Positions 12,630-50,400 of a stretch of DNA of 64,000 nucleotides are shown here, piece by piece. A model generated the notes under the pieces. The model saw only the letters and a program-made list of their open reading frames with translations, did not search any database and had not been told where the DNA came from. Origin of the DNA: Candidatus Omnitrophota bacterium. Its GTDB lineage: Bacteria > Omnitrophota > Gorgyraeia > Duberdicusellales > 4484-171. The stretch covers positions 16,403 through 80,402 of the forward strand of contig JBDRIY010000058.1 in the NCBI GenBank assembly GCA_043815445.1, read 5' to 3'. Made by a program: the position numbers and the translations under genes. The first letter of the stretch is position 1; every line of letters starts with the position of its first letter.

Positions 12630-12649
12630 TTTACTATTCCCTGATTTTC

Positions 12650-13828: not shown

Positions 13829-13831
13829 TCT

Positions 13832-14352: not shown

Positions 14353-14377
14353 TTTTTTGTATAAGAAAGGAGAAAGA

Positions 14378-15017: not shown

Positions 15018-15020
15018 CCC

Positions 15021-19456: not shown

Positions 19457-19685
19457 TTCATTAAAGAAGCTGTTGTTAGAATCTGAAGGCGGCAAAGCCG
19501 GGCCGCTGCCGGAGATGTGGATTATAAAAATATATGGGGAGTTATTAAGATCTATCAGGCTGGATTTTGGGAAAACTAGAAACGTCTCCTTTTTTACCTC
19601 TCTTGCTTTTTTCAAGCTGAAATCAAGTTTATTGACACCTTCGCGGGAAAATGTTATATTTAAATTGTCCAAATAAGGAGGCTGT

Positions 19686-19913
19686 ATGTTAAGACATTTT
19701 AAAATAGTTATTGAAGAGGAGCCTTTAGGAGGCTTTTCCGTACATGTTCCATCGCTTTCTGGTTGTGCTACCCAAGGTGAAACACTAAAAGAAGCAATAT
19801 CTAACGCCGAAGAAGCTATCAAGCTGTATCTTTGGTCATTACAAGATGATGGTATTTCTATACCCAAATCTGATATGCGGGTAGTATTGAAAGATATCGA
19901 AGTATCTGTATGA
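19686..19913 (+). CDS. hicB: HicB-family antitoxin (UPF0150).
   Basis: MLRHFKIVIEEEPLGGFSVHVPSLSGCATQGETLKEAISNAEEAIKLYL is the typical HicB N-terminal RNase H-like fold signature. It overlaps the HicA start by 4 nt. Confidence 0.75.
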   Translation: MLRHFKIVIEEEPLGGFSVHVPSLSGCATQGETLKEAISNAEEAIKLYLWSLQDDGISIPKSDMRVVLKDIEVSV

Positions 19914-20143
19914 CGAAACTGCCCCAAACTTCCGGAAAAGAAGCTATCCGTGCTCTCCAAAAAGCTGATTTCTTCATCAAGCGTCAAAGCGGTTCCCATG
20001 TAATAATGAGGCATTCCACCGACCTCACCCGGCGCTGTATTGTCCCTGTCCACGGTTCTAGAACTATAAAACCCGGCACCCTCCACTCTATCCTCAAAGG
20101 CGCCGCCATCTCCATAGAAGAATTCATCAGCCTGCTTAAATAA
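19910..20143 (+). CDS. hicA: HicA-family mRNA interferase toxin.
   Basis: SGKEAIRALQKADFFIKRQSGSHVIMRH...IVPVHGSRTIKPGTLHSILKGAAISIEEF is the canonical HicA/YcfA motif. Confidence 0.8.
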   Translation: MTKLPQTSGKEAIRALQKADFFIKRQSGSHVIMRHSTDLTRRCIVPVHGSRTIKPGTLHSILKGAAISIEEFISLLK

Positions 20144-20191
20144 AAGAATTTCATAAACTTCGGGCGTCTTTTCCTTCAACAAATTCGCAAT

Positions 20192-29100: not shown

Positions 29101-30100
29101 TCTCCTCAGCGTAACCGCTCCCACTATTTATTATAGCCAACATAGCCAAAAACGCCGCGCCCAGCAAAACCATCCCCCACAACCCCTCTAGCCCTCCCTT
29201 TTCCAACGTCTGCAGCAAATCCTTTAATCCTCGCGCCGAAGCAGGAAACGCAAAAAACAACACTCCCAATCCAACAAAGACCAACACCACCCCCGCGAAT
29301 TTCAACCAATGGTTTTCAGTTTTTAGGCTGTGGGCTTTCCACACTGTCCAGACCAACCATGTTGCTAAGATAAAAACTAACATTATTAAGAAAGGCTGAG
29401 CGATTTCGAGAAAAACAGAAAATCCTGTGGGAATAACTGCGATTGAAGATTTTTCTTTTAAGCAATTATCTTTAATAAGTTGCGGATTCTTTAATTTTCC
29501 TATGCGGGAAAGTAAATTATTGTAATGTTTTGTAATACTTTTAACAGATTCTCCCCAAGGATCAACCCCATTTTTTAATACTATATCTGTTAAAGCATCA
29601 TGAAAAATATTAAAGGCCTCTTTTAACTTCCATTGCGAAACATTACCTTCAAGAACAACTTCAACCTCAGTTTTACTATGAAGAATTATCGCAACCAGGT
29701 TCTGCTGAATCTCAAACACTTGTGTATGCCAAGATAAACATTCGCCCAAAATACATGACCTGCCATCTTTCTCTATCTTAACCGTAACCCCACACTCTTC
29801 TTTAAGCTTCTTAGCTAAATTGAACAATACTCCTGAAGGCCTTTCATGTAACCGATAACCCAACTTTACCTTTTCTCTATAAACATTCTCTTTCTTCAAG
29901 CCGCCATTTGTTATAGTCGATACAGCCAAAACCAAACCCATAAATAAAATAATCCCTAACAGCCCTTCTAAGCTTTTTCCTTCCGGCGCCAGCAGTAGAC
30001 ACTTTAACCCCCACGCCGAGACAGAAGACACAGAGAGCAAGATTCCTAAGCAGATAAAGGATAATATTATGCCAGCGGGTTTTAGGTAAAACTTCCTATC
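20192..30100 (-). CDS. Giant protein (~3300 aa). It has N-terminal TM helices, a TPR-like helical repeat region, a P-loop NTPase (Walker A GGIGKST, Walker B LLIWDEGTD) and a C-terminal M24-peptidase-like (creatinase/prolidase fold) domain. The N-terminal ~230 aa resemble its own C-terminal ~100 aa, which I treat as a module-boundary domain.
   Basis: The phase-2 stop (TAG) is at 20194-20192. Phase 2 was verified open at 21601-21660, 23041-23100, 25741-25800 and 27001-27060. The Walker A is encoded at ~25755-25785. GHGTGLAGHQ...PGMVITIE (M24 metal-ligand motifs) is at ~20830-20900. An internal ATG is at 29383. The frame continues upstream without an ATG to ~30100, so the start is approximate. 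Confidence 0.5.
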
Positions 30101-30101
30101 C

Positions 30102-30130
30102 TTGACACGCTTTTTAAGAAATGGTATAGT
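30102..30130 (+). promoter_or_regulatory. Sigma-70-type promoter TTGACA-17 nt-TATAGT for antitoxin copy B2. It is near-identical to 11040-11068.
   Basis: TTGACA 30102-30107, TATAGT 30125-30130, RBS AAAGGAGG 30173-30180. Confidence 0.5.
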
Positions 30131-30190
30131 TGAGTTGATGAATCTTGTTAGAAATATAATTTTTAACAGGGCAAAAAGGAGGCGTTTAAT

Positions 30191-30439
30191 ATGGCTAAAA
30201 TTACTATTGACCTTAAACCAAAACAGATAGAAGAAGCTTTTCAAAAACTTTCTATTCAAGAAAAACTTCGCCTTACTAGGGAGTTTGAAAGACTTACCCG
30301 GCGTTTCCGATGGGATAGTCTTATTACTAAAGTCAGAACCCGCGCTAAAAAATACCCCCTTCCCCAAAAAGAAATAAACCGAATATGCAAAGAAACTCGT
30401 AAAGAACTTTATGAAAGAAGAACTAATCGCAGTAATTGA
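30191..30439 (+). CDS. Antitoxin-like small protein, subtype B (copy B2).
   Basis: MAKITIDLKPKQIEEAFQKLSIQEKLRLTREFERLTRRFRWDSLITKVRTRAKKYPLPQKEINRICKETRKELYERRTNRSN. It overlaps the PIN start by 29 nt. Confidence 0.75.
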   Translation: MAKITIDLKPKQIEEAFQKLSIQEKLRLTREFERLTRRFRWDSLITKVRTRAKKYPLPQKEINRICKETRKELYERRTNRSN

Positions 30440-30833
30440 TACTAATATATTTACCAGCATATTAATTGCTAAAAGTAGTACCTTTTCTAAAATATTTGAA
30501 GCTTTTGTCGACGGCGTATTCACTCCTGTTTTATCTCTGCCTTTATATTCTGAAATTATAGAAGTTATCCAACGTGAGAAATTTAAAAAATACTTTGAAA
30601 AAGAAAATATTACTAAATTAAAAGAATTGCTTAAAAATGACGCGATTTTTGTTACTCCTTCTTTAAAAATTGACCTCTGCCGAGACCCCGCAGACAACAT
30701 AATCTTAGAAACCGCCATAACCGCTAAAGCTAATATTATCGTAACCGGCGATAAAGACCTGCTAACTATAAAAACCATCCACAAAATCCCTATTATCACC
30801 CCAAAAGAATTTTTAAAATACCTAAAGAAATAA
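30411..30833 (+). CDS. PIN-domain ribonuclease toxin (140 aa).
   Basis: MKEELIAVIDTNIFTSILIAKSS...LCRDPADNIILETAITAKANIIVTGDKDLL is full length. It is a paralog of 14604-15017. Confidence 0.8.
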   Translation: MKEELIAVIDTNIFTSILIAKSSTFSKIFEAFVDGVFTPVLSLPLYSEIIEVIQREKFKKYFEKENITKLKELLKNDAIFVTPSLKIDLCRDPADNIILETAITAKANIIVTGDKDLLTIKTIHKIPIITPKEFLKYLKK

Positions 30834-30859
30834 TTCTCTTTTTTAATAAGTTCAAGTTT

Positions 30860-33800
30860 ACGCGAGATAGAAGAGTTTTTATGGCGGGTGTAAAAGAAGA
30901 GAAAAAGGGTTAAACTAACAACTAATAACACTAACGGCGGACCGCAATGCCGCGCGGATGAAAAACCTCCCCGCAAAAACCTTTGAAAAAAAAGAAAAAT
31001 ATCAGAATTAAAAATAAATACCCCTGTGGACAAATTAAAGCCGTTATTTTTATTACAACGCCGCTGTCTGTCTCCATTTTTGTCAGTTTTCTTTTCTTCC
31101 TCATTTAAAACCTTCTCAATATAAATGGCTTGTTTCTCAACAGGATAACTTCTCTTTAACTGGCAGTTTTTAAACACTTCCAAAAGATGAAAAGCGTCAA
31201 AAGAATATTGCCTACCTCCAGAATCAGAGACTATTACCTTCCAACGCCATATACCAGGACTCACTTCCACTTCAGCTAACTTATAACCATCGTTTAAATG
31301 AATCTTATCGTATAATGCCTGCCTTAAAACACCGGGATCAAACTTCCAGATTTTTCTATCCAGGATTTTTCTCCACACACAACTTTCCCTAAAATGCTTG
31401 AAATAATTCATACGGATATTTTCTGCACTCGCTAGTCCTTCATAATCACTACCGTCTGAAGATGTAATCTTATTACATCCCAACTCCTGTGCGCTTCGTT
31501 TTAAATGTTCAATTGCCTCAGTCCACTTAAGGAAAATAGGATAGTTTTGTCTAAAACTACTGCCTTGAGAGACATAGGTTAAACACCGGTTATGCTGACT
31601 AAAAATAATATGCAATTCCTGTAATCCTTCTACATCGTATCCTTTATAATTAAAACCTATATAACCTAAGCTTCCCGGGTTCGGACATGAGCTACGATAA
31701 CTATTTGACAAAGGACCTCTGCTTATCGTTCGATTACAAGGAAAAACTTCAATAGTTATCCTATCAATACTATAGTGACGCAGACTAAAAAAACATTCTT
31801 CTTTCAAACCGTCTTTTTCTAAAACCATCTGATAGTGAACTCCTGTTAAACTATCTACTAAATAATTTTTATATCTCTCGGTAAATATTTTCTCCAACGC
31901 TAAAATTATACTTCGCTTACTATAAAAATCCTCCCTTCGCAGACGGACAGAATCAAGCCAAAAGAATTTCGGCTTCATCAGTGCCGGAAGAACCTTACTC
32001 AAATTAAACTCGATCTCTCTATTATCTTTCGACAAGAAATACAAAAACCAACTTTCTCTCTTATGCACAAACTTAAAAGGAATTTCATCAAATCCCAAAA
32101 ATCGCATCTCTTTAGGCCTCAAACTCTCAAAAAAAGAGAAGAAAACAGCTTTCACTTGTTTCTCCTTCATATTTCTCAAGTCCAACTTATGCCTTTTCAA
32201 AAAACGAACCGATACTATAGCTTTAGCTGAAATAATAACATCTTTCTTATCAAAAAATCTACAAATTTTACTAAAACTATCGCGAGGCGCCCAAGGAAGA
32301 ATACTAAATGGAGAATAAGTATTCCCTTCTTCAGCATACCAACGATTCTTGCGGTCATATCTAATAAAAATAGATCTGTAGACAAACTCATCGCAGCTAT
32401 AAAATAATTCTATGCTGTTCACGTAAGAATCATTTGCCGGCAAAACCGCCCAAGAATAAAGAAAAGGCTTACCGCTAATCCGCTTTTCCCACCAAAAATT
32501 GTAAATTACAGCTAAAGCTATTTTTAAATTCAATTCCCCTTGCAACAAACCTGCCTTACAAAAAACACCTGCTACTTCTTCATAAGGAAGAATAACAGAT
32601 AATGCCCGCACCAAAGAATTATCTCCTAAACCCGTTGATTGCCAAAAGAAAAAAGGCGAAGAGATTGTGTCCCTGAATTTCCTTTTTTTCTCCTTAAAAT
32701 TTTCTATTAATTGTTTAAAAAAAGGCCGGTTTTTAAAAAACAGGATTAAAAAAACAATCCCTGCAAGAAAAATTAAGATAATCTTTCCATATGAAACACC
32801 CCCCGGCGGAATGAGTAAACCCCCGCAAAGTTTAATTTTTTGATAATTCTTAAGATGCGTTGATTCTATCTTCTTACTTTTCCTCTTTTTATCATCATTC
32901 TGATCCTTTACCTGGAATGAGAGAATACTCCTTAAGAAACTTTTCTCAAACATAGATAATTTAACGAAAATGATAACTGCCTCATCAGTTATTTCAAAAG
33001 TTACATTATGCCTGTCGATTCTACTCAGTAATTTTCTTACATCTTCATTAGAAGGCCTTTCTCTATTTTTACAAATCTCTTGTTGTGGATCAGAACAAGT
33101 CTCCCAACAATTTTTTTCTGAATCAACCCAATGGGCATTATAATCAGGAATACCCCAAAGAATACATCGCGCGCAGGAAGAACGTCTTACTAAAGGTATA
33201 GTTAAACTTAATTCTTTATATGCTCTAATAATTCTTTCTTTAAGCACTTCGGGTAAATACTTTTTATAATCATCCGTTTCATAGGTAGGTATTTTTATGT
33301 TGTGTCTTTGTAGATGAAGCCTTTCTTCATCAGAAAGACTAATCCCTCCTACAAGTATAGAATCAACCTCTGTTTCTTTAGCTATACGAAGAACCTCCCG
33401 GATGCTCTCTTCTGAATCATTCTGTCCTAAAATTATGGGCCTAAAAAACAATATTGACTTGACTCCAAGTTTTTTTAAAAGCTTAATTGACTCCCTAGTT
33501 TTAGAAGAATCTGACAATGGCTCTACTTTAGTAGGCATATTAGAAAAAGTACAACCAATATGTAATCTCACATTTTTGAATTGCGCTAATCTTTCAACAT
33601 CCTTTTGCTTTAAGGACGTCTTGGTTATCACACTTACCAGATTTTTAAGCCCCAATCCATCAAGTATCTCTAAGATAGCAAATGTACACTCTTTAGTTCG
33701 CGTCAAAAGCGGGTCTGTTTTTGAAATCTGTAATCCGAGAGGGGTATAATCGGGAATGAAAAGTGGATGGTTAAATAGCTCTATAATTGTTTCTAAATCA

Positions 33801-36800
33801 TCCTTGGTTCTTACAGGCTTTTCTACATCTTTTTCATATCGAAAACAATAGGCGCAATCGACTGAACAACCAACAAACGGGTCTATTGACAAACAAGCTT
33901 TTTGCTGAGATATATATTCAATAACCCCCCTTTCAGAATCTTCTTTTATTATTTCTAACCAGTCGCTTTTTGGCCTTATCTGATGATCTATACCAGGAAA
34001 TTTATAGTTACCTACGCCTAAGCTAATCGCAAATAATAATATCTGTGAGTCTTGATTATTCAGTTTAAATTTATCATTACATGTTTTAGCTAATTTTAAC
34101 AATGCGGAATTCGAAACAATATTTCCTTCATGCGGCTTATACCCTCCCGCAATGAATCTAATCGCTGAATGTAAAGATTTATGATTTTCCTGATCGAATA
34201 GGTGTGCACATAATCTTAAAGCGTTGATAGGGTCTCCGTAATTCTTTAAATAACAACTATAAATCAAAGCTATCTGAGAAAATGATTGTTCTATACCTAA
34301 CTGAGAATTTCGCTTAAGCCAATTTTCGTAAGCAATAATCGCTCTTTTAAAATGCTCCTGAAGTAACGATAAAGATATTCTGCTTTTTCTCTCATTTTTA
34401 GATTTTAAAGATTCAAAACTTGCTGTTTTTAATTTGCTTAAAAATTGTAACCTTACTATATATTTAAAAACTACGAAAGTACTTTTAAAATATTCCTTAA
34501 AGAAGGGACTGTTGCAGTAAGCAAAGAAGATTATAAGATACACCGCGTAAAATAATATTAACACCTCTGGTGGTCCCTGAGACAAATTTGAAAAAATCCC
34601 TGCCCTTATTAATCTCTGAAAAGAAAACAACATATTACTATCACCAATGAGGGTAAATAAAGCTACGTTTTTGTTTACAGAAGAACTGGATATTTTATCG
34701 CTCATCTTTTGAGGTAAATATCCTGTTATCTCTAAAAACTCTTTCTGCTGAGCGCTATTTAGATTTTTTAAATATGAAACTATCAACTCATTTGACCAGC
34801 GCCCCTTATAAAGCGCTATGCATAATTTAAGTAAATTTCCTTCCGGGGGATAACCAGGAAAAACCTTCTTGTCTGGGGATGTCTTTACACGCAAGTCCTG
34901 AACATCTTGGTCAGGGACTGAACTGCCATACGTAAACCACATACGCCCAAACGCATACTCTATGACTTCCCCAGCTCCCTTCAGCCGCTCAAATATTGTC
35001 ACATAGCCGGCAACATCTGAATTTACAGGACTTTCTTTCTGGATATATTTCTCATGGTTAAATACTCTAGATAAGCAAGCCAGCACCTCCGTGTCTATAC
35101 CTTCGTGATTACAATCAATGTAGCCTTTATTTGTGTATATATCACCAATCACTATAGAATCACTCATATCGTCAAAAACAATATATCCCACATATAAAAC
35201 ATCATCGCCATAATAAATATTATAGCAATTATAATACCCTTTTTTTATCCATATTCTCTTCCCATATCCATGATTCAATGTACCGTCAGAATTGTATTTT
35301 TTGTGGTTTATAATGACTACTTTACCCCCCTGCTTCTTAGGCAAATCAGGTGTAAATAAAACGCTTTTCCAAAGCTCCGCTTTAATCACAGATTCTATCT
35401 CTTTAGCATAAGCATTTGTACATTTATGCCTTAATTCACACAGTGTTTCTATCAAACCAGAAATATCTTTCTTTACACACTGCCCAGAAAACTCCACATC
35501 CTGCCCATTATTGATAACAGTTATATTAGAAAGGCTAACATCAATAGGTATATAACCATCGTTAGATTGCCAAATATCAATCAGCTTCTCAGCAGTCATT
35601 CTTACCAGCCTTTTTTTCTCTATATTAATCTGTTCTTTAGCCTGGCCGGTCGGCCATATATGAAGCTGTTTTTCCAAGGATAGTCCTATTAACGCCTTTA
35701 ATTCCGCCTCTCTTACGTCCACTCCGCTGCTATTTAAAACAGCAAAACTCAAACACCCCCCCACCAATGGATTATTTTTCAAATAAAGCTCTAAAGCATC
35801 TCTTAATTTGGTATAGGCCTCATCACCTGAAATCTCATCAATCGTATCCCTAAAAATCCGTAACGCTTCTTCTCTGCCTAATTCTTCAACTGTCGCGTCA
35901 AAGATAACTTCGTAGGGGATGGAAACATAATCAACTTTATAGGGTGTTAGGCGCGGATCCCGCAAACTGTCCTCAGTATTAACACCCCTGAAAAAGAATT
36001 CCCAGAAACTGATGTTTTGCATCTTATTGGCACCCAAATCCACATACTTCTCCCTTGCCTCGCAGGCTTCTGCCAAGGCTGCGACAGCTCCGGAGCTTAA
36101 TATATTCGCGGCATCGTTAACAATATCTCTTGTAAGAGAGCTCTGATAAACCGCGTCAAAGGCTATATGCTCTGCCGCATGACAGAATGCAGCCTGCTGT
36201 TCATCTACGCTTAAGTCTTTGGATATCAAAATAAGTGAACCTATCTTTAATTCTTTGGCGCGTTTCGGGTCGCCAATCTTATATCCAACAGGTATTGTAT
36301 CTCCTGCCTGATATGTACCATGTGTGTCAATGCCTAAAACCCGCTGAATCCTCTCTATGACCTTCTGTGAAACAATATTAACCCCCGCGTTAAACTCATC
36401 ACCTAAATCAGTAAGAGAATTACCACTCTCTGCCAGATTCTTTAATTCAGCAATAGCAGGCACAGCCACATCATCATTCCCTGCAAGCTCTATACACACT
36501 CCCAACACCCCAGCACCCAACACCCATAGTAACCTGATTCCCAAATCTCTCCCTTCCGGCAACGGCAATAAGCACTTTAACCCCCGCGCTGAAACAAGAG
36601 ATACAGAGAATAAGATTCCTAAACAGATAAAGACCAACACTATGCCGGCGAATCTTAGCTGGCGGGGTTTGACTTTTAAGCTTGAGGATTTGTATGTTGT
36701 CCAAATTAGGTATATTGTTAACAAGACAAAAGCTAATATTATCAAAAAGGGCTGAATGTTTTTGAAAAAACTAGGAAAAACAACAAGATTGAAGTTTTTA

Positions 36801-39800
36801 ATTCCGGAAGGACTGATAGCAATATCACCTTTACTTAAGCGGCTTTGTTCAATCTGATTAATAATGCATTGCGGCACTCTATGCTTATTTATAAAATCAA
36901 TATTGCGCCGGGCGTCCTCCTCTATTAGCCACTGCTGCAGTTTCAATGTCATTCTATAGTTAGCTTCTTTAATGTCCATACCGTCAAGTTGTATTAAATT
37001 TCCTAAATTAGTCTGTTCCACTACAAATACTAATGGTTTTGAGAGAAAGCTATCATCGAATAATCTTATATCTTTGAAACTGCTATCATATTTTCTGCAC
37101 CTTTCAGACAATAATGCAAAAAGATAACGATCCTCAAGATAAGAAAAATATGTCTTGTAAAAATCTGCGAGTAAAAGTATCGGAAAATCTTTTGAGAGTT
37201 TAATATTAGAATCATTACATAATAACGTTACTAAATTAATTTCATTATTAAGGTTGCTAAAAAATCCATAATTAATTGAATATGTACCATTCAAACATAG
37301 ATGGGTATCTTTCCATATACTGCAGAGACAGGTTTGAGAAAATAATGCCTCTAGAATACGGCGTGTAAGGCGCTTTCCTAAAATAGTATCTGCTTCATCA
37401 TATAAAAAGTCAGGAGGAATGTCTTGAAAAGTTCCTTTGAAATAACGCTTCTCAAAAAATCGTTTCTCAAGGGTTGTGATCATCTGCTTGATATCAGCCG
37501 GCGTATTCTCTTCTTTTTGAAGCTGAGAAACTCCCCGCCTAATAAATTCACCCCAGCCAAATAACCCATTCAACCTCCCAACAGTTCTCCCGAAATCACC
37601 TAGAAAAGCATAATAACGTTCTTTTAACAATCCTGAATCTTCTATCTGCTTACATAATTTAGAAATCATTTTATTAGCATCCTTACCATAGGCAGCAATA
37701 AAATCTTCCTGAGTAAACATAAACGGTTTCTCTAACAACCAAATTGGATATTTAGGCGCATTCTGAAGTTTAAGCAATGCAACTTTTTCTTCCAGAGTTA
37801 AGAAATCTTCATTATCAGAAGCAATCCCATACTCATCATAATCCTGCGGAGAATTAGATTGTCTAAACAATTTACGATTCTGCGGCTTTGCCTGAGCAAT
37901 AGCTATGCGCCGAAAAATCATAAGAAACATTTCTTCTATACTATTGGGTAACGAGTACCCATTATTTTCCTGATATTCGCAAAAACGCTTAAAATAGTGC
38001 TTAAGGCCAGGGTCTAAATCTAAAATTTGCGGCATTTTATCCAATCGATACGGCGAGATAAGATCAAAAATTATAACTGGCTGAATAGTCTGCTTAAGAT
38101 CTTGAGCGTCAAGCATACCTTTAGTACTCACTCTCTTACCTTTTTCATTAATATAAACATAAAGTTCACGATATGCCACATAACCAGCATGTTCTTCAGT
38201 ATCGTTCCCAAGCTTTGCTTGTGCAAACAATGTTCTATTAACTTCTTTTTTTGAGGCTATACCAACATTTCGTTTACCGTCCTTATCCAGCCAATACGGC
38301 GACATATCTTCAAACCGATGCTGGCCTTCACCTTTAGCGCTTAACCAAAGAGAGCCAACTTTCCATGATGTCCGCCTGCTATTAACAACTTGGAAATTAA
38401 ATGTTTTATCGGATTTTCGGTCAGTAAATCCAATAATAATTTCTTCATCAGGATGGCCGGCTAATTCATTAGCACGAACAGCATTCAAGATTAAAAAACA
38501 ACCATATTTCTCTAAAATATTCCTTCCTTCTCGTAATTGATTCGTAGAGTTATCTACAATATCACCCTTCCCTTGAGTAATTAATGCTTCCCTGCCGAGT
38601 TTTCTCAACTTGAACTCATTAGGCTTATTAATAGGGCCTATTTCTCCCTTTTCTTCTCTTAACCGGAGCATAAATACTGCTTTTAAATAAGGATTTTCAT
38701 CCAAAAAGCTAACAATTTCATAAGTAAACAGCTTACGCAAGTTAGCGAATAGAAGAAGGTCATGCTCTTTAAAGCAACGCCATTTCTTTCTTTTAAGGTC
38801 TTTTGATATTGGATTGTCACCTCCCGCCACACACACCCCCAACAAAACCGCCCCCAATGCCCCTACCACCAACCTAATCCATAACCCTCTCCCTTCCGGC
38901 AGCAACCCCGTCCGCCCCCAAGCTAAAGGAGAAAAACCAAAAGCCCCAATAATAATCCCCAACAAGGCGAATTTTCCGGTAAGTTTAAGCGGACGCGAAA
39001 TAGAGAAGTTTTTATGGCGGGTATAAAAGAAAAGAAGAGAAACTAAGCCTAAAACAGCCCATAACACCGGCGGGGCTAAATTGCCTAACAGGCTCATTTT
39101 ACCGCTAAGCAAAAGCTTATGGAACCCGGCTAATTTATACAATGCCGCCGTAAGAATTGTAAAAGCTAAAACTACAGGTATAAGTATAACCCTGCTAAAA
39201 CCATTACATAGCTGAGGAGATAACCTATGGAAATCATTGGCAGTAAATCCATCCAAAATTTGTTTAAAGAAAGACGTAAAACTATTTTCTTGTCTACTGG
39301 TTTTCTCCTCATATTCTCTTATCCTCTGTAAAATCCTATTTTTTATAAATAACAACTGTTCTTGTGACGCTGTTATTTCTTTCAAGGCTTGATTAATTGC
39401 TTGTTCTGCCTCAAGAACAGTAACAGATCTTTGGTCAACATATTCCAGGCCTTTTTGCGTTGTGACATTAAAATTCTTCAACAGCGTCTCCCATACCCCA
39501 TGATTTTGGCCAAACTTAGTAGATGCTTCCCGCGTTCTAACTAAACTATAATTAATTAACTCTTTCTGCTTATTAAAAATCGCGATATTCACTCCAAACT
39601 TTTGACTCATAATATCCGAAATATTAAAAAATAACTGTTCTGATAGGTCAGAGGTCATCCGTCCTTCAAGCGCAAAAGGATAACCAGGATCATCAGCCAT
39701 TTGTGATATTTGAGTTTCACCAACTCTCCCTAAAACTTCATGGGAAGAATCTTTAGGTATTTCCATACCAAAGACTAAGCGAAAATTCAAATGGTTTATC

Positions 39801-42800
39801 ACCGCGCCCGCGCCTTTTGAGCTAAAACCAATAATCCCATTAGTCTTTTTAGCTAATCTATTCATTGTTTTGATGTCTTCTAAACAAATGTTATTCTGTC
39901 CACGGTGTTTTTTAGATAAAACCACAAAAGTATCTGCCTGCCATCCATAAACATCGGGTATAATAATAAAATGCCTATTCCAGCTAATGCCTTTTATTAT
40001 CCAATGCCTATTACATAAAATACATTCAGGATCGTAACGATAAAAATGCTTGATTATACCCGTTTTAAATTTATAGACTAAAAACCAAACTGATAAATAT
40101 AAAGCTATTAATAAAGTGTATCCTCTGAATATATTCCTTAAGTTTTTTGGGGCGTTAACCGCTATAGTAAAACCTTTCTGTTTAACTTTATGATCTTTGC
40201 TGGGGTTATAAATAACATTATAATGGGGCAAACTTTGAATTTCATTCTTTAAGAATTTATTCACATCAATTATACCTAAATATCTATACTGAGCGCTTAA
40301 TGACCTTAATACAGACTCCATATCCCAGATTCTAAAAAAGGATATAAATTTAAGCAATAATCCAAACAAATAAAAATCTAAACAACCGACAATTATTTTT
40401 ATCATACTCAACGATTTTAACGCTTGCTTATTGCCTTCTAATCTTGCTTTAAACCATTCTAAGGCCATCAAATCTAATTCATAACAGTCGACGAGTAAAT
40501 TTAAGACATAATTGAAATGGTAATCAGTAGGAGAACAATCAAAGCAGGAAATACTTGGGTCCAGTAACATTGTTTGCTGCCGTCTTTTACTGCTCCAAAT
40601 TTGCCTAAAGGTGTTACCTTTGCCTAAAACTCCAAACTTACCACCTGAAACATTGCGATGTTGACAACAGCCAAAAAATTCTCTTTTGGGATTAACAACT
40701 GCCTGCCACCTTCTTACAAAACAACGCTTTACTTTAGGTTTTATTGCTTGATTAACTTTCTGCCAAGCTTCCTCTAAACTATACATTTTTTCAATATTCA
40801 GTTTATCCCCCCATTTATCTATTGAAAAATCTATTAATCTATAAGCCTCAGCTAACTTTTGATAAGAAAACTTAACTGACTCTTTAGAATAATGTTCCAT
40901 TTTAAAAATAATCTGGTTAATGCCGGCGATACAAGATAACTTTTCACATATCCGAGCTACCCCTAAATAATTGTAAGGATGCATTAAGTAACTTACATCT
41001 ATTTTGAGTTTACTATTTAATCTATCCCTGGTTCTTATTACCCCGGGGATATATTCATTGATTATTTTGGGAAAACAATCCCTGGGCTGGCCGGGTTTAA
41101 CCTTCTGATTTGATTCCTCATCGTAGGCGTCTAAAGAAATATTTAAAATATCAACATATTCCGCTAAAGTTTTCCAGGTTCTCTCATCCATGTATCTGGC
41201 GCTGGTATAAACAAAAAGTAAAGATTTTATCTCCGCGATTTTCTTAATAATATCCAGCAAATCTCTATGATTAAAAGGCTCGCCAATATCAGAAGCAATC
41301 CGCACTATAGGGGTATAACCGTATTGCTTAATATCATCTATAAGCTCAAACAAATTATCTTTATCCATAAATTCTTCTTTAGCTAATTCACTACGGCTGC
41401 CTCCTTCACACCAAATACATAAATTACCGCAGACACTGGTGATCTCTAACTGTAAAAACAACAATCTGCCCCCTACGCTTCCGGAAATCACTTCTTTTAT
41501 ATCTGACCAATAAGGCAGCCACTGATTCTTAAACCGCTCAGGATAAATACCCCCTTGGTCAACCCATTCACCAATTCTTTTTCTATATTGATAAATCTTC
41601 CCCAGCGTAAAAAATAAATGCCCCCTAGTTTTTTGTTTTTGAACACTTACCTTTAAATGTTTATACAAAAAGAAAAGAACTAAGCCTAAAGCAACCCACA
41701 ACATCGGTGGGGCAAAGGTCTGATACCAGCTTAAAATAGGGTATTTTGGCAAGAATTGAAGGTTTGGAAATGAAGTAAAGAATCCTATGGGGGTAAATAG
41801 GGTGAGGTTTTTGTTTGCAGAAGAGTTGACTGTTTTATTGTTAATCTTTTGAGGTGAATACCCTGTTGCCTCTAAAAACTTTTTCTGCTCATTACTGTTT
41901 AGATTTTTTGTCCATGAGGCTATAAATTCCTTTGACCAGCAACCACCTTTATAAAGCGCTATGCATAATTTAAGTAAATTTTCTTCTGGTGGATAATCAG
42001 GAAAAATCTTCTTGCCTGTAGATATCTCTACCCAAAGATCACAAGCTTTATTATCGGGAACCAAATTGTCATATTCTGTCCATTTAGTGCTCCCCACAAC
42101 TCTATATTTTATACTCCCCTCATTTCCTTTTAACCTCTCCAATATTGTCACACAACCTTGCCTATATGAATCTTTGACTCCGGCTATTATGGTATCTTTT
42201 TCATAGTTGTACGCCCTAGATAACCATGCTAACACCTCTGTACCTATGCCGTTACGGCTATAATTGGTGCGGCTTTTATCAGTGTATATACGTTCAATAA
42301 CTATATTATTACCCTCAACGTAAAAAGTAATGTATCCTACATATAAAGTATCTTTGACATAAAAAATACTAAACAATTCACCACACTTCTTTACTACCCA
42401 TATTCTCTTCCCGTATCCTGGATTCAGCACTCCGCCTGAATTACGTTTCTTATGGTTTATAAGAACTGCCTTATCCGAACGTTTTTTAGGCAAATCAGGG
42501 GTAAATAAAACACTTTTCCACAGCTCCGCTTCAATCGCAGATTCTATTTCTGAAGTGTAATCTATGCCGAAATGGAGTATTTTAGGGTTAAGTTTAGAGG
42601 CGTAGACCTTATTCTTGGAAAGCTTAACACGTAAAGAACCTATTTTGCCCTTAGTATCCAAATCCTCCCGGCTAATATATGGCTGCCAGTCCCATTTTCC
42701 ATTGACCTCTTGAATAGCATATTCTATTTTATCCCCCACTCTCTCAAAAATCTTAAGCCATCCGCCTATGCTACCTAATAGAGGACCATCACCTTCTAAA

Positions 42801-43669
42801 TATTCATAACCCAATCCTGAAAACCACATAGCTATAGCTGTACCTATTCCTCTTTCAGTGAAATCATCTTTATTCTTGTCTTTGTCCGCACGAAAATTCA
42901 TCCATATTTTTATCGAACCAGGACTGGACCGCCAAAGATAAATTATTCCTGCAAATTCACCGGTTTCTCCGTAATAAACGCTATACGTACCCTGAGAAGC
43001 ATCAGCACATATTATCTTTATCTTTTTGCCGGATTGGTCAGATTTCTGATTAATCAGAACAACTTCTTCCCCTTCTGCCGGCAGGCCACGGGGGGATGTG
43101 TCATTTACTTGTCTTCGCAATCTTCCAAGCGCTTCTATCAAACCAGAGATATCTTTCTTTACATACTCCCCAGTAAATACTATATCCTGCCTGTCACTTG
43201 TAACAGTTATATTAGAAAGCCTAACATCAACTGGTACACAACCCTTGGATTGCCAAATATCAATTAGTTCCTTAGCAGCCATTTTTACCAGCCTTTTTCT
43301 TTCAGCCTTAATTTGGTTTGGAGTTAAACCAGCCGGCCAAGCATGAAGCTGTTCTTTTAAGGATAATCCTGCTAATGCCTTCAATTCCACCTCTCTTACC
43401 TCCCCTCCCCTGATATTTAAACCAGCAAAACCCAAACACGCCCCTCCCAACAAAACCAACCCCAACAACCCCCCTAACCCTGCCTTTTCCGGCGGCAGCA
43501 GTAGATACCTTGACATCTGCACCGAGACAAGAGAGACAGAAAACAATACTCCTAAGCAGATAAAAGACAATACTATGCCGGCGAATTTCATCTGGCGGGG
43601 TTTGGCTTTTAGGCTTGGGGATTTTCTTGCTGTCCAAATTAGCCATGTTAATAAGACAAGAGCTAACAT
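30860..43669 (-). CDS. Giant modular ORF (~4270 aa) built of at least three tandem paralogous modules, with junctions at ~39100 and ~36700. Each module begins with a TM hairpin (KPRQ(M/L)(K/R)FAGIVLxFICLGxLFSVSLVS), then a conserved ~600-aa region and a further TM anchor. Two modules carry a radical-SAM CxxxCxxC motif.
   Basis: ATG at 43669 (MLALVLLTWLIWTARKSPSLKAKPRQMKFAGIVL...). Both module junctions (39130-38820 and 36840-36640) were reverse-complemented explicitly. They contain no in-frame stop and stay in phase 2. Phase 2 was open, while phases 0 and 1 hit stops, at 33000, 35041-35100 and 40021-40080. The radical-SAM-like motifs are VGCSVDCAYCF (33843-33872) and VCGNLCIWCE (41406-41432). 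I could not fix the 3' end because phase 2 stays open through the antisense of the PIN gene. The end of homology with other modules is ~30860. Confidence 0.5.
33843..33872 (-). other. Radical-SAM CxxxCxxC cluster motif (GCSVDCAYCF) in module 3 of the giant ORF.
   Basis: Direct reverse-complement translation of 33843-33872. Confidence 0.5.
41406..41432 (-). other. Radical-SAM CxxxCxxC cluster motif (CGNLCIWCE) in module 1 of the giant ORF.
   Basis: Direct reverse-complement translation of 41406-41432. Confidence 0.5.
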
Positions 43670-43795
43670 TTGAAAAACAACATTGATATTGACATTATAA
43701 TTGAAAAATGGTATGTTTATGATAGCTAAGGAGGCAGACGCAGGAAATTGAGAGATGCTTTCTTTAGATGAATACGTATTGGAAGGAGATAACGA

Positions 43796-44029
43796 ATGGA
43801 TAATAAAATAATAGAAAAAATTGAAGACATTGAAGATAGAATTGAAAGTATTAAATGGCTGATTAACGCGCGTTCTTTTGCCGATAAATCTCATATTTCT
43901 GCCACCATTAACATAATAAGAGAAAGCGGAGGAATTTTGAATAAAAATTGCCTCAAAGGAACTACTTTCGAAAATAGAATCCGCCGAGCATGGAAAACTA
44001 ACTTCTCCAAAAGGACAAAATACTCCTGA
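43796..44029 (+). CDS. Putative VapB-like antitoxin (77 aa), upstream partner of the PIN toxin.
   Basis: ORF with its stop 3 nt before the vapC start. MDNKIIEKIEDIEDRIESIKWLINARSFADKSH... I recognise no specific family. The assignment is by position. Confidence 0.45.
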   Translation: MDNKIIEKIEDIEDRIESIKWLINARSFADKSHISATINIIRESGGILNKNCLKGTTFENRIRRAWKTNFSKRTKYS

Positions 44030-44032
44030 TTT

Positions 44033-44407
44033 ATGCGTTATCTTATAGATACGAATATTATTATCGACCACTTGCGTGGAGATAAAAGTGTTACTTCCTT
44101 TTTGGAAAAGATAGAGAATAAAAAATCTCAAGCGAGTATATCTGTTATCACTGAATACGAACTTCTTATTTATCCTCCGCTTACTTCCCAGCAAGAAAAA
44201 GAAATTATTTCTTTTATAAATATTTTTGCTGTCCTTAATATTACCTCTTCCATTGTTAGAATCGCTGTTCGTTTTAGAAAAAAGTATAATACTGATATAA
44301 TAGATTCCCTTATCGCCGCTACAGCTCATAAAAATAAATCCATCCTTATCACCCGCAATATTAAACATTTTAAGAATATCAAAGAAATCCAAATTGAAAC
44401 CATTTAG
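44033..44407 (+). CDS. vapC: VapC-type PIN-domain toxin.
   Basis: MRYLIDTNIIIDHLRGDKS...IIDSLIAATAHKNKSILITRNIKHF has the classic VapC PIN acidic residues (D6, E, D, D). It ends with TAG at 44405-44407. Confidence 0.75.
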   Translation: MRYLIDTNIIIDHLRGDKSVTSFLEKIENKKSQASISVITEYELLIYPPLTSQQEKEIISFINIFAVLNITSSIVRIAVRFRKKYNTDIIDSLIAATAHKNKSILITRNIKHFKNIKEIQIETI

Positions 44408-44439
44408 TAAAATTCCGAATAATTGAGAGATGCTCTCTT

Positions 44440-47400
44440 GAGTTGACTCTTTACCAAATTCTTCCTTACTAAAATTAGACGAGGTATTATGATCTATCTT
44501 GAGGTTATTTAGAAAAGATTGAGGGGGGATGTCAAAACCATAATTATTATAAAAATTAAAACAAATAACTAAAACAATTATCCCGAAAGCAGCCAGCCAA
44601 GCTACCCGGCCAAACGATAATGCTGACACTCCCGGCTCCGCCAACCCCGTCTCCCCCCAAGCTAAACCAGAAAACCCAAAAACGCCGATAATACTTGCTA
44701 ACAAGGTGAGTTTTACAATAAGTTTAAGTTTATGCAGAATAGAAGAGTTTTTATGATGGGTATAAAAGAAAAGGAAAAGAACTAAACTTAAAACAACCAG
44801 CGGCGGGGCAAGGATTTGATATGAGCTTACAATGGGAAATTTTGGCAAAAATTGAAAATTTGGTAATGAAGTAACTAATCCTATAGGGGTAATTAAAGCA
44901 AGGTTTTTGTTTACAGAAGAGCTGGATATTTTGTTATTAATCTTTTGAGATGAAAGCTCTGTTAACTTGTAAAGCTCTTCCTGCTGGACGCTATTTAGAT
45001 TCTCTGAATATAAAGCTATCAACTTATTCGACCAGCGACCTTTATAAAGCGCTATGCATAATTTAAGTAAATTTCCTTCCGGGGGATAGTTAGGAAAAAT
45101 CTTTTTGCCTGGAAATGTTTTTACCCGAAGATATTTAATGTCTTTCAAAGGAACTAAACTGCTATAATTATACCAATCGCGGCCTTGGTCGTATTTTGAA
45201 TATTCTATAACCTCTCCTTCCCTTTTTAACCTCTTAAATATTACCAGATAGCCAGGTATAGCTAATCTAATAGGTTTATTTATTTGAATTACTTTCTTAT
45301 GGTCAAATACTCTCGTGTAATAAGCTAAGATCGCTGTGCCTATGCCCTTTCGACTGCAATCAATATCACCTTCATTTAGATGCATTCTAGTAATTTCTAT
45401 AGAAGAACCCACAATTCCAGAAGTAACATACCCCACATATAAAGGATGTACACCATAAAAAATCTTATGACGATTATAGTTCTTGTTTTGTATCGTAATT
45501 TTATTGCCATATTCCATATTAAGCGTGCCGTTTGAATGATATTCTTCACGATTTATAATGTGTGCCTTATCCCAAGGGTTTTTAGGCAAAGCAGGGGTAA
45601 ATAAAACACTCTTCCATAGTTTCTCCTTAATAGCCGCTTCTATCTCAAATGCATAATCTATATCCGGACAACTCTTAACAGCCTTTAAAGTACTTAGGCA
45701 TTCATCTCTTAATTTTCCTAAAGTTTCTATCAAACCGGAAATATCTTTCTTTACACACTGCCCGATAAACATCACATCCCGCCCATCATTAGTGACAGTT
45801 ATTTTAGAAAGGCTAACATCGACAGGTATATAACCGTCATTGGACTGCCAAGTATTAATTAGTTCCTCAGCAGTCATCCTCACCAGTCTTTTCCTTTCTG
45901 CCTTAATTTGTTCTGGAGTCTGGCTGGCTGGCCAAGTATGAAACTGTTCTTCTAGGGTCAGTCCCGTTAACGCCTGTGGTTGCCTCTCTGTTACTCCCCC
46001 TCTACTAATATTTAAAACAGAAAAAACCAATTTTCCGCATAAAATATCTAATATCTTCTTTTTTATTTTGTTATTAGTCGCAGTATCTTCATTTAAGCTA
46101 TGCGCATATTCTTCCTCTATTACGTCTAAAAAATTACTGTAGTATTTCCCAAAAGCCCAAAGCCCTCCAACAACACCGCTAAGTTTGAAGCGGGAAGAAA
46201 AACTGGAAGGATTGGTAGAAAGGTGTTTAACGAAGAAAAATACGAAAAACAAAAACAATATAAACCCTATAACAAGAGGCGGAGCAAGGGTTTGATACCA
46301 ACTCACAACAGGAAATTTTGGTAAAAATTGAAGGGTTGGGAATAAGAAAGATAATTCTCTATAATTATCACCAATCAAAGCTTTCGAGTCCACTTTAGCG
46401 GCAGTTTCTTTAATTCGAGTTTTCATTTCTAAAAGCACGGAACGGGTAAGATTAAAAAAGAGGCTTTGAGCTAAATGTTGAACAGAGACAGCAGAATTTA
46501 TTATTAAAGAATATGCTTGAACATATTCGGTATTTATCTCGGCAGGAACGCGATAATTAGAATCGGCCAGCGAAGACTGGACAAAATCATAAACCTCTTT
46601 CAGGTAATCAGGCGAAACTTTGAATAGTTGACCCAGATTATAAATATCAAGTTTAGGAATATAACTACCATCAGCCTGTTTATTTACATAATCCTGATAC
46701 TGTACTGCCGCAATCAACCCATTTATCTCATAACCAAGAGCAAGGTACATTAAAAAATCAGCATAAAATTTTGCTTGTTGCTTTATTCCTCTTACCAACG
46801 TGCTATCCGCGCTTATTAATACGGATGCTTGTTCAAGGCTTAAAGCTCGCTGCTTTAATCCTTTTATTATCGCGATATCCACAGCCCTTGCCTCGGCTTC
46901 GCTGAATCCCATTGCATGTCTAAACTCATGCGCCGCGTACATAATAATATCTGCTGCTGTCGCGATGTTTGCCGCGTATAAAGTGTTTCCTTCAAATCTA
47001 AACGCCGGGGAAAGAGCAGCATTTCCTCTAAGCATCAAACTAACATAAGGAACTACCTCAATATTTATATCCCTACCCACAGCTTTACTAAATACCCCTT
47101 TTATAAAGCCTAAAGTACTACCCTTGCCTCTAGCTACTTCGCCTAATGTTCTCTGAAACGAAAATCCAATATTATCTATACGTAAACTCAAGCTGTTATA
47201 AAATTCTCTGGCGCTAGGTGAATCAAGGCCCATACTAACCAGCTCGTTATTTAAAAAATCGCGGAAAATACTATCTGCTTGTTCTAATTGCTCTTGAGGA
47301 ACTCGGCCTTTAACGATAATCTTTATACTTATGCCTGACGGTAATTCTCCATCCCTGAAAAAACCTAATGACCTAATAGAACTTACCCACCTCAACCAAA

Positions 47401-50400
47401 TATTATCTGTAGTCAAGTTAAATTCTTCATCCGCTATCTTTAAAGCAACAAAAATTTCAGCTCCATACTTGAGCTGATTACCTAAAAAAATCATCTTTTC
47501 TAACGGCCTTTTATGAACTATGTAGCGTGTTGTAACTGTTTCTTCATAAACGTTTTCCTTTTCCACTATCCTTTTTTTATCAACCCACTCATTATGCGCT
47601 TCTGCCAATGCCTGAAGCTGACAGCGGAATTCTTCGGAAATTCTCTGCTCTGCTTTGATCTCAAAAAGATTTATCTTTTTCACTTCCCTTGTTGATAATA
47701 AATCACGCATAATAATATTACTTTCTGGGTGGAAAAAATAACCAAAAGGACTAGAAGAATGTTTAAGCAACAGGAGGAATTTGATAAGGAAAATGATTGA
47801 AACAAATATAACAAACAGCACAACCAAGCCAGTCCCTGCGCGGATAGGATTGGCAAAAAAGATAAACTGTAAAAACCGGTTATGCTTATTCCCTTCATCT
47901 TCTTTAACAAACATATATTTATCTTCTACCCGCCAGGATTTATAAGCTATTTTATTCTTACGGATAAGGCTAAGAAAAACATCAACGATCTCCCCATCAA
48001 ACTGTTTTCCGCTTTTATCTTCTAAAACAGAAATTGCTTTCCTCTCCGACAATCCTTGTTTATAAACCCTTTCTGAAGTAAGCGCGTCAAATACATCCGC
48101 GACAGCTAAAATCCGCGCGACTAACGGAATATTCTCGCCTTTTAACCCTGAAGAATACCCTTCGCCGTCATATGATTCATGATGGTACTCAGCGCCATTA
48201 TACAATATCTTTAAAAATTCATCTTTACCCTCAATATCCCCTCCGTTAATAACCGAAAAAATAACTTCAAGGCTTTTCCTGTCCATTTCTAATAATTCTA
48301 CCCCATACTCCGTATGTCTTTTCATGATAATAAATTCTACCTCAATTAAACAACCCAATTTCATAATAATCTTCTTGGTAATACGAAGCTTTCCAATATC
48401 ATGCAGCCATCCCGCCATCTCGATTGCTTTTATCTGCCCATAGGGCAAGCCCGAAGCAACAGCAATATTTCGGCTATAATAGGCAACTCGTTCGGAATGC
48501 CGCTTAGTATAAATATCCATACTTTTCAAATATCCCGACAATACCTCCAGCGCCTCTTGATACCTTTCTTTTAAATCTCCTTCCAGAAAGCTTAGATGGT
48601 TAAAAAAACACTCTTTCATCCCATAAATTTTAATTTCCTCACTAAGACTTTTCACTTTACACTTCAACTCCCTTAGATTTTTCAACTGATAACCCGTATC
48701 AATAAACACTGGCGTTGACCTTACCGGCGCGGCCTTAAGAAACACAAAATGATGTTCTTTAGGCAAAAGCATTCTTTTACGGATTTTTTCATCGGCGTAA
48801 ATACAAATAGAGTTATCATTCTTCTTTTTATCAGCCAAATATAATTTTATCCGTTCACTAAACGGCACAAAACCAAATTCCATAAGCATTTTTATAAATA
48901 CGGGGTGGTAAACTACAGCTGTATCTCTAAACTTAAACTGCCTCAAAAACCGGGAATCTTTTATAGTCAATAAAAACGCGGCGAATAAATATTCAGACAA
49001 CCCCTTTCCCTGATAATCATCAAATACTTCAAATGTATTAAGCTTTAATTCTTTGCCGGACAAACAAATTTCAACTTCTAACGCCATCTGCCTGTTTTTC
49101 ATATCCATAAATTCCAATAAATATAACTCACAATAAGGCAATGAAAAGACCGGTCTTAATGAAAACTTAAATTTATAACCTAAAAATTCAACTTTTCCCC
49201 GTAAAGACAAAATGCCTTTATGATTAGTTTTGAAAATACTGGCTAACCGAAAGGCTATTTTATGCCGTAAGCAGTTTAACCAGGAATAACTATTTTTCAG
49301 CAGACAAGAAGAAAAACTGGAAAGATTGGAAGAATGTTTACGAGAAAGAAGGAATTTGATAAGGAGAACGATTAAAATAAATAACACAAACGCCCCCGTC
49401 CCCGCGCGGATAGGATGGCCGACGAAGCCGAAATAGAGAATTTTTTGCAGAGAAAAGTTGGTGTTAGATAAGCTGGGGAAGAATAGAATAGCAGTTAAGC
49501 TATTCTTAGAATTCACTATATTATCCCGCAATCCTGAAGTTTTATCTATCTTACGAAATAATACGCCATCAATACGAAGTCTACACTGTACGTCTTGTTT
49601 AGTTTCTACCCCCGCGCAAATGTTAACGATATCCGGGATTAAGTTCCAGATTGAAATAATATCCTCACTATGTTCTCTTTCTTTATCCGCAAGTTCCTCT
49701 CTCAAAACAGCAATATTTCCTTTCTTTTTATTGAAAATATCTAATATTTCATTCTTATCTTTGTCTAAAATGCTTAAAAGACAGCCTCGACAAAGTTCAG
49801 AATTTTCAAAATCAATGGGAAATCTACTAAGAATGTGATCTTTAAGGTAAGATTTGCTAATCCCCATGCTGATCGCGACTTGTTCACGATTATCTTTAAG
49901 CAAGTAATAGCGTTTTATGATCTCAATAATAATTCTCTCCTTGATATCAAAATAAATAATTATATCTACTATATTTTTTCTTTTTGCGTAGGGCAAATAG
50001 GCCTTAAGCAGCTTCTTTAAATTACCTAAGTTAAACCCCTGATATGAATGTTCCCAGATATCCAATGCCTTGAATTTAACGACTTTCTGAAAATAATCTT
50101 CTGTGAGCGCGCCGAATTTCTTTTTCTCATCAGCTTTATTTTCTATTTCCTTAATAACAATACCTAAATCCTCAGAAATCCCAAGTATCCTTTCTGACCG
50201 CTCAATACAGAACCATTTACAAACAGCTTCAAGCTCTCTATTATAAAACTGAAGTACTTCGTGAAATATCTGGTTAAACTGCTTTGCGAAACCTAACGCT
50301 TTTATTTTTCCTCCGTCTGAAAAGTTTTCAAGCGCCGGGATTTCTTTTGTATAAAACTCTAATAAACCAGGTAAATCCAATGTTGCATCTATTGCCAAAA

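Follow-up and report, generated by a model that had tools for sequence, protein, structure and literature searches.

Old duplicates of a putative membrane linker and antisense toxin-antitoxin-type operons within one giant open reading frame of a Candidatus Omnitrophota bacterium

The stretch analysed here, 64,000 nucleotides of a contig of a Candidatus Omnitrophota bacterium (JBDRIY010000058.1, positions 16,403 to 80,402; hereafter the window), carries two short DNA blocks which recur at junctions between enzyme modules. Judged from their substitution patterns, the blocks prove to be old intragenic duplicates of one coding element, kept alike by selection on the encoded peptide. The account which we favour, and hold to be very probable, is that of old linker duplicates in one giant open reading frame (ORF), with shuffling of modules in the past and with a nested operon splitting the linker copy at 30.85 kb. 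The nested-operon arrangement came to light because the junction flagged at 30.85 kb in the initial annotation led there.

Recurring blocks in a single giant open reading frame

Block 1 has a core of 32 nucleotides (nt), ATAGAAGAGTTTTTATGGCGGGTATAAAAGAA, which is present with one to two mismatches at 30867-30898, 39000-39031 and 44739-44770 and had no match in 100 dinucleotide-preserving shuffles. Comparison of the window with itself by blastn gave 78.3% identity over 157 nt between 38903-39059 and 44642-44798 (E 1e-30), 79.8% over 84 nt between 30839-30922 and 44711-44794, and 84.2% over 57 nt between 30847-30903 and 38980-39036. Block 2 is found at 29943-30085, 36552-36748 and 43449-43677, with a fourth copy, unlisted in the initial annotation, at 29146-29384; its copies share 71-78% identity over 107-240 nt. 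The reported recurrence of both blocks is therefore real and far beyond chance. The description of this DNA as near-identical does not hold, since exact agreement between copies extends over no more than 16-17 nt in block 1 and 13-15 nt in block 2. Other repeats of the window equal or exceed the blocks, including one of 78.5% identity over 321 nt in a repeated domain, termed D, which also contains the longest exact repeat of the window (47 nt).

That the repeats are products of chance, of low-complexity sequence or of misassembly might be suspected from the A+T-rich composition of the region and from the runs of A and T in the motif. We give this explanation almost no credence, given the result of the shuffles, the blastn E-values of the repeated blocks (6e-10 to 1e-30) and pairwise alignments which extend over 57-157 nt rather than over a few low-complexity bases. 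A misjoin would break the frame two times out of three, whereas here one frame is kept through all junctions over 64 kb; with the repeats also too short and too diverged, the suggested hotspot for assembly errors at the junctions is not supported.

The copies had been assigned to different giant genes, but all of them lie in one giant multi-enzyme gene on the minus strand, a single ORF of at least 21,333 codons (2..64000) which is open at both window ends and is defined by stop counts and in-frame Pfam matches. Frame 0 of the minus strand has no TAA, TAG or TGA over 21,333 codons, against 1,818 and 2,438 stops in the remaining two minus frames. An ORF listing with the standard bacterial code leaves the plus strand almost empty because this one stop-free frame spans the window. 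An alternative genetic code as the cause of the missing ORFs was ruled out, as the frame lacks all three stop codons. The skew of guanine over cytosine is negative across the entire window, which agrees with a single coding strand.

Structure of the linkers

In the giant frame, block 1 encodes the last part of a hydrophobic helix together with a loop that is basic and rich in serine (FFYTRHKNSSISRKLKL). Block 2 belongs to a second module type, in which it encodes the corresponding loop and the helix after it (KPRQxxFAGIVLSFICLGILFSVS). Block 1 corresponds to helix 1 and loop 1 of one module type, block 2 to loop 1 and helix 2 of the other, and the two types are distantly related (residues 8303-8396 against 9077-9177 of the giant frame, 33% identity, E 1.4e-5 by blastp). 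Hidden Markov models (HMMs) built from the block copies detected six modules of about 115 residues with three hydrophobic helices each, starting at residues 6385, 6760, 8294, 9070, 11260 and 11520 (E 1e-32 to 5e-49), and three further partial copies. All on the minus strand, these include module a (44507-44848, HMM), module b with the block 2 copy at 43.6 kb (43376..43723; HMM 5e-49, alignments), module c (38774-39121, HMM), module d with the copy at 36.6 kb (36449..36793; HMM, alignments) and module f with the fourth copy (29090..29443; blastn, HMM). Module e is split: its helices 2 and 3, with the block 2 copy at 30.0 kb, lie at 29873..30088, and its helix 1 and loop lie across a nested operon, in junction J8.

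The junction signature, consisting of a pre-helix F-Q-x-L ... P-P motif, helix 1 and the basic loop, occurs in nine copies (J1 to J9), which alignment and HMM place between 25943 and 49513 on the minus strand: J1 at 49280-49513, J2 at 47705-47932, J3 at 46163-46384, J4 at 44693..44920, J5 at 41597-41824, J6 at 38957..39187, J7 at 34433-34684, J8 at 30821..31051 and J9 at 25943-26191. The three cores of block 1 belong to J4, where all three elements of the signature are present and which opens module a, to J6, which opens module c, and to J8, which has helix 1 and the basic loop only. The junction copies close successive modules of 500-1,600 residues which bear the enzyme domains. No tenth copy was found in the window with the alignment and the HMM built from these nine.

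The proposal that the blocks are linkers of transmembrane type at module ends agrees with the hydropathy peaks, the HMM matches, the junction copies and the charge of the loops, loop 1 having a net charge of +2 to +6 and loop 2 of about 0. By the positive-inside rule loop 1 would face the cytoplasm, and the probable role of the linkers is to hold every enzyme module at the inner membrane.

Searches for relatives were negative throughout. The profile of the three-helix module had no match among 5.8 billion protein clusters and retrieved only one spurious repeat protein (P0001) from 1.84 billion representatives, and an alignment of domain D plus linker found no relative among genome and metagenome contigs.

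Age of the copies

Domain D, which directly precedes J4, J5 and J7, served as internal yardstick for the age of the duplications. It comprises about 380 residues and is present in four copies on the minus strand, copy A at 44846..45994 (protein self-comparison) and further copies at 42623-43405, 41801-42565 and 34610-35767, with up to 56% identity over 383 residues (E 7e-146). No relative of this domain was found among the 5.8 billion protein clusters, nor any Pfam match; a G-I-G-T motif following beta strands hints at an acetyltransferase-like fold. The paralogues around the linkers had been thought to be otherwise diverged, but the flanking domain D repeats retain 70-78% nucleotide identity over 321-1,140 nt.

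Synonymous divergence (dS) and the ratio of non-synonymous to synonymous divergence (dN/dS) were calculated by the Nei-Gojobori method, together with the fraction of identical residues encoded by the same codon, for which codon usage alone would give about 0.4. Domain D copies have a dS of 0.73-0.81, a dN/dS of 0.34-0.60 and a same-codon fraction of 0.65-0.71 (0.53 in one more diverged pair). The corresponding values are 0.80-1.32, 0.24-0.56 and 0.71-0.77 for the junction (block 1) copies and 0.69-1.19, 0.49-0.64 and 0.49-0.65 for the block 2 copies. As the junction dS is not below that of domain D, the linkers are no younger than the neighbouring repeats, and their similarity is explained by selection acting on the peptide.

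The initial annotation had proposed ongoing gene conversion, or recent recombination, which would keep the linker DNA alike while the remainder of the modules diverges. The 32-nt core common to three copies with unrelated upstream domains would fit such a process, as would the slightly higher same-codon fraction of the junctions relative to domain D. Yet neither signature of conversion was seen: dS within the junctions is not clearly below that of the flanking paralogous sequence, and there is no long identical or near-identical run, the longest identical tract being 17 nt and the 47-nt repeat lying in domain D. With identity of just 78-84% over at most 157 nt, and with a dN/dS which accounts for retention through peptide selection, we hold ongoing conversion to be very unlikely.

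Mosaic relationships of the junctions

Four sub-blocks of the nine junctions were scored all against all. J4 has its best partner in J7 for the upstream domain (351), in J5 for the pre-helix motif (102), in J8 for helix 1 and loop (111) and in J6 for the downstream helices (89). J7 has its upstream domain in common with J4 and J5 and its pre-helix motif with J9 (residues 9786-9829 against 12611-12659, E 3e-9), and the domains upstream of J7 and J9 are unrelated. The switching of partners is itself evident from these scores, and since the closest partner changes between sub-blocks, modules appear to have been joined in new combinations in the past by recombination whose breakpoints would lie at or beside the linkers. 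The view of the linkers as points of module shuffling thus stands as history; as a current process it does not, there being no ongoing homogenisation.

Conserved inter-module linkers are recombination points in the modular megaenzymes that act as polyketide and non-ribosomal peptide synthases. As in those enzymes, short similar linkers recur in the giant ORF between catalytic modules that are otherwise different, and adjoining segments do not agree in their relationships. Differences from these systems are that the linker is here a putative hydrophobic membrane anchor, that carrier and docking domains are absent and that the modules are unrelated stand-alone enzyme types.

The nested operon at the 30.85-kb junction

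The abrupt end of the 30.85-kb copy is due to a complete antisense antitoxin/PIN operon which sits in loop 1 of the split module e, a loop of 271 residues. J8 ceases to resemble J4 and J6 at about 30846, which leaves 13 nt to the antisense PIN gene's stop codon, and the block 2 similarity at 30.0 kb ends near 30085, about 15 nt before the promoter-like site of the operon. The operon (30098..30833, plus strand; recognised by Pfam, promoter-like site and stop avoidance) is composed of an antitoxin-like gene (30191-30439) and an overlapping PIN_3 toxin gene (30411-30833; E 4.5e-19, profile positions 2-115 of 115). Upstream are found a promoter-like site, TTGACA-17-TATAGT, with 11 of 12 consensus positions (30102-30130), and AGGAGG before the ATG; the consensus promoter scan covered this region.

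A VapC operon (43746..44442, plus strand) is located exactly between modules a and b and contains a small gene (43796-44029) followed by a VapC-type PIN toxin gene (44033-44407; PIN, E 5e-17). It is flanked by a direct repeat (43746-43772 and 44421-44447) of 19 nt with one mismatch, or of about 27 nt at lower identity, whose copies start 675 nt (225 codons) apart and both encode [K/Q]ESISQ in the giant frame. This repeat looks like the scar of an in-frame insertion.

The close fit of linker and operon boundaries at 30 kb, together with the VapC operon and its direct repeat, could mean that the blocks are ends or attachment sites of a mobile cassette which brought toxin-antitoxin operons into the giant gene. 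We consider this very unlikely, because no nested gene lies in the roughly 2 kb between modules c (39.0 kb) and d (36.6 kb), the eight remaining nested operons have no adjoining modules, and the blocks behave as coding sequence of the giant frame, with dN/dS below 1. Furthermore, the loci with the same cassette family in other assemblies (L001-L011, see below) gave no match to the linker and junction HMMs in any of six frames. Flanking direct repeats were found for one of the ten nested operons only, that of VapC, and inspection of the cassettes at 30 kb and 44 kb for flanking inverted repeats returned only A/T-rich noise, so that an invertible or transposon-like element was dropped.

Inventory of the nested operons

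Altogether the giant ORF contains ten plus-strand operons antisense to it (18 genes, 5,162 nt). Eight are operons of toxin-antitoxin type or remnants of such operons, one is a pair of genes for a DUF5678 protein and a retropepsin-like aspartyl protease (1017..1642; Pfam), and one is a lone coiled-coil gene. In addition to the two operons described above, they comprise an antitoxin with a truncated PIN_3 (5948..6380; Pfam), a HicB/HicA operon (19686..20143; HicB_lk_antitox 1e-11, HicA_toxin 5.5e-18, with TTGACA and AGGAGG before the start) and an island of five operons (11093..15017), recognised by Pfam, pre-start signals and stop avoidance. The island carries a lone antitoxin (11093-11338), the coiled-coil gene (11463-11864), AF2212-like plus PemK/MazF (12056-12629; Pfam), BrnT plus CopG antitoxin (13583-14110; Pfam) and antitoxin plus PIN_3 (14378-15017; Pfam).

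The toxin domains of the PIN_3, PIN, PemK, HicA and BrnT families match their profiles over most of their length and above the curated cut-offs, with Pfam scores of 69.8 and 77.4 bits for PIN_3, 63.1 for PIN, 48.0 for PemK and 65.3 for HicA, and 34.7 for BrnT against a cut-off of 34.5. The small partner genes are adjacent or overlapping, with overlaps of 4-29 nt in several pairs. A Shine-Dalgarno-like run resembling AGGAGG, as judged by consensus match, precedes the first gene in each of the ten operons, and TTGACA-type hexamers were seen by eye before seven of them. At most nested operons the codon-usage score prefers the plus-strand frames over the giant frame. That the nested ORFs are mere shadows of the giant frame was ruled out by the near full-length family matches, the promoter-like signals and a lower dN/dS in their own frame (see below).

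The most similar repeat of the window, 88.4% identity over 249 nt between 11083-11328 and 30178-30426, consists of a nested antitoxin gene with its promoter region; this antitoxin family has four copies in the window, all in one phase relative to the giant frame. By tblastn no further decayed copies of the 18 nested proteins were found in the window, and the Rfam scan of the whole window yielded no family. Two of the nested toxins have no exact entry in the gene-call index, as one would expect should gene callers drop genes contained in a longer ORF. An exact repeat of 22 nt (6369-6390 and 12651-12672) is situated near the ends of the truncated PIN_3 and of MazF, two unrelated toxins, and a small tandem repeat with a period of 12 nt (15109-15144) lies just beyond the PIN_3 gene ending at 15017.

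Hydropathy, the only basis here for transmembrane helices, gave 59 peaks along the giant ORF, of which 16 (27%) fall in the antisense read-through of nested operons, that is in 8% of the sequence. Examples are found at residues 11062-11174, 16490-17551, 19259 and 20977-20990. Such peaks arise because the antisense of small genes rich in Lys, Glu and Ile gives peptides rich in Phe, Leu and Ser which score as transmembrane helices, and they may not be real helices.

Some of the chromosomal type II toxin-antitoxin operons have been proposed to stabilise gene arrays such as superintegrons. The nested operons resemble such operons (PIN/VapC, PemK/MazF, HicAB, BrnTA) in having two small adjacent or overlapping genes with promoter-like and ribosome-binding-site-like signals of their own, and, as far as their sequences tell, in their near full-length family matches and several paralogous copies. 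They differ in being wholly inside and antisense to a larger ORF and in codons which avoid stops of the host frame. Antisense overlapping, or nested, protein genes of bacteria are rare and usually involve one short and disputed ORF. As in those cases, the same DNA keeps a frame open on either strand; in distinction to them, one host ORF holds ten operons (18 genes, 5.2 kb) of well-known families, with a phase that is fixed across independent assemblies.

Stop avoidance and selection in the nested genes

For the analysis of stops, the nested protein sequences were kept fixed and synonymous codons were redrawn from the codon usage of the giant gene. Across the 18 nested genes 57 stops were expected in the giant frame and none was observed, while the remaining two antisense frames have 183 and 129. 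The probability of finding no stop was 0.005 or less for each of nine nested genes. The antitoxin/PIN_3 operon at 30 kb has no giant-frame stop against 5.5 expected, and the VapC operon none against 8.7, with a probability below 0.0005 for its toxin gene. TTA, the commonest leucine codon in sense regions (44%), accounts for 22% of leucine codons in nested genes.

Comparison of paralogous cassettes gave dN/dS values of 0.15-0.32 for the plus frame and of 0.43-0.93 for the giant frame, from which it follows that amino-acid selection in these regions acts mainly on the small genes and that the giant frame is mainly kept stop-free. In the eight cassettes for which the phase was computed directly (four from L001-L003 and four from the window) it was the same in all, the antitoxin being codon-aligned with the host frame and the toxin shifted by one base; the third phase is used by none of the 18 nested genes of the window. 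The missing stops represent direct sequence evidence of selection that keeps the giant frame open end to end, which bears on the question whether giant ORFs of this kind are read as one unit.

Occurrence in other assemblies

A profile built from the four antitoxin copies was used to search 185,579 species genomes for relatives, and six contig sets were added from homologues among called proteins. The profile identified three loci (L001-L003), two in Candidatus Omnitrophota assemblies and one in an assembly labelled Planctomycetales, in each of which the strand opposite the cassette has no stop along the entire locus (3,562, 4,081 and 14,763 nt). No stop closes the antisense frame across the cassette in L004, L005, L006-L008 and L012-L015, and this frame is often open over the whole contig, up to 11,215 nt. 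The antitoxin alignment found no relative among metagenome contigs. Overall, eight of nine distinct relatives in public assemblies have the nested arrangement, and the antisense stop pattern of L004-L006 and L009 agrees with the phase of the window cassettes.

The ninth type, L009-L011, carries the cassette between two large minus-strand genes, in a spacer of the usual kind that is rich in stops, with no stop in the antitoxin and one in the toxin in the corresponding antisense frame. The L009 cassette (1114-1786; JGI 3300020074, with a protein named from a Candidatus Omnitrophica metagenome-assembled genome) is a distant copy of 32% identity. Recent departure of this cassette from a giant ORF is one possible explanation; another is that its lineage is intrinsically "transparent" to a host frame.

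In L004 (JGI 3300035688), L006 and L007 (JGI 3300035535 and 3300035525) gene calling broke up the long stop-free minus-strand frame where the nested operons lie, which makes the nesting invisible in the annotations; in these records a large gene is called on one or both sides and the small genes appear as if intergenic. Two very long minus-strand frames overlap by 44 nt in different frames in L006 (4638-4681) and L007 (2145-2188), just upstream, in the direction of the giant gene, of HicBA and an antitoxin/PIN_3 pair. A true gene boundary would explain the overlap, as would a frameshift error or a programmed frameshift.

Comparison with known giant proteins and proposed model

The giant frame has in-frame Pfam matches above curated cut-offs to Glyco_transf_5 (the catalytic domain of starch synthase), Alpha-amylase, HD_5, two Radical_SAM, Peptidase_M24 and a methyltransferase, and Pfam also finds parts of a 4-alpha-glucanotransferase in it. 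The window contains no marker gene, and no close relative of its sense-strand domains was found. From its sequence, this content matches the multi-enzyme giant genes described in Omnitrophota, whose "multi-enzyme metabolic cluster" proteins, also known as Archaeovorin-type, have numerous transmembrane helices and the same Pfam families (West-Roberts et al. 2023, 10.1101/2023.11.21.568195; Nielsen and Lui 2026, 10.64898/2026.06.07.730766). The window ORF resembles those proteins in exceeding 10,000 codons, in predicted transmembrane helices every few hundred residues, in scattered starch-synthase, amylase, radical SAM, HD, methyltransferase and peptidase domains, and in internal repeats diverged at the nucleotide level. 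It is unlike them in that its linker and domain D are without detectable relatives, and in its conserved linker motif and opposite-strand genes, which neither paper mentions. A divergent SecA DEAD helicase domain has been reported in most full-length Omnitrophota giant proteins; Pfam found no match to it in residues 1-20,000 of the window ORF, which extends past both window ends.

In the model which we propose, one linker element was duplicated long ago within the giant gene and retained by peptide selection, and modules would have recombined in the past at or beside the linkers. The giant frame would be translated through the nested operons, and the cassettes may have entered in frame, or spacers holding cassettes may have been absorbed when neighbouring genes fused; the L009-type locus looks like the unfused state of such a spacer-held cassette. 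Taken together, stop avoidance and this type of locus suggest that giant genes can grow by fusing neighbours across spacers. On a speculative level, the operons might find in the giant gene a safe harbour within a small and crowded genome, or they might be addiction modules guarding a long, repeat-rich gene from deletion. The wider proposal, of a toxin-antitoxin lineage adapted to antisense life in giant genes by avoiding host-frame stops in one constant phase, with a harbour or addiction role and with the linkers as splice joints, is tentative, and we put it slightly below an even chance.

Several points weigh against the proposed model. The mosaic could in part reflect uneven decay rather than recombination, and translation of the whole giant ORF would follow from the absence of stops only. 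Membrane insertion and topology are deduced only from hydropathy and the positive-inside rule; if all helices crossed the membrane with the basic loop inside, extra crossings between modules would be demanded, and none was seen. A structure model of domain D plus linker was unusable, with a mean predicted local distance difference test score (pLDDT) of 41.6. Neither a detectable relative of the linker nor an orthologous giant gene was recovered, the cleanest test of concerted evolution being a comparison of orthologous with paralogous copies.

Old internal linker duplications in a known kind of giant gene are in themselves ordinary. Complete operons with expression-type signals of their own, nested antisense while the giant ORF stays open and recurring across public assemblies, are apparently undescribed. 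Antisense or nested genes in giant ORFs are mentioned in neither of the two Omnitrophota giant-gene papers (West-Roberts et al. 2023; Nielsen and Lui 2026) nor in a related gene-transfer preprint, and no description of toxin-antitoxin operons nested in a larger ORF was found in the full-text literature, with most subscription journals outside its coverage. If the wider proposal is correct, giant ORFs can absorb whole operons, or the spacers that held them, unbroken, with modules and cassettes spliced in at the linkers. Some of the "dark" sequence of giant proteins and some of their predicted helices would then be antisense read-through and not functional domains, and the helix counts given for giant proteins are perhaps inflated by read-through of nested genes. 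A practical warning is that the gene callers behind public records hide nested genes or split the giant ORF around them.

Other features of the window

Just past J9 (25,700-25,900, residues about 12,700-12,780) the giant frame reads EGGIGKSTTS, which is P-loop-like and suggests a MinD/ParA-type ATPase module; no Pfam match to such a module was obtained in this interval at E < 0.01. The module ending in J6 contains a Radical SAM domain (41078..41446, minus strand; PF04055, E 1.4e-10), and a second, diverged Radical SAM domain is present in the module ending in J8 (33398-33880, minus strand; PF04055, E 2e-7).

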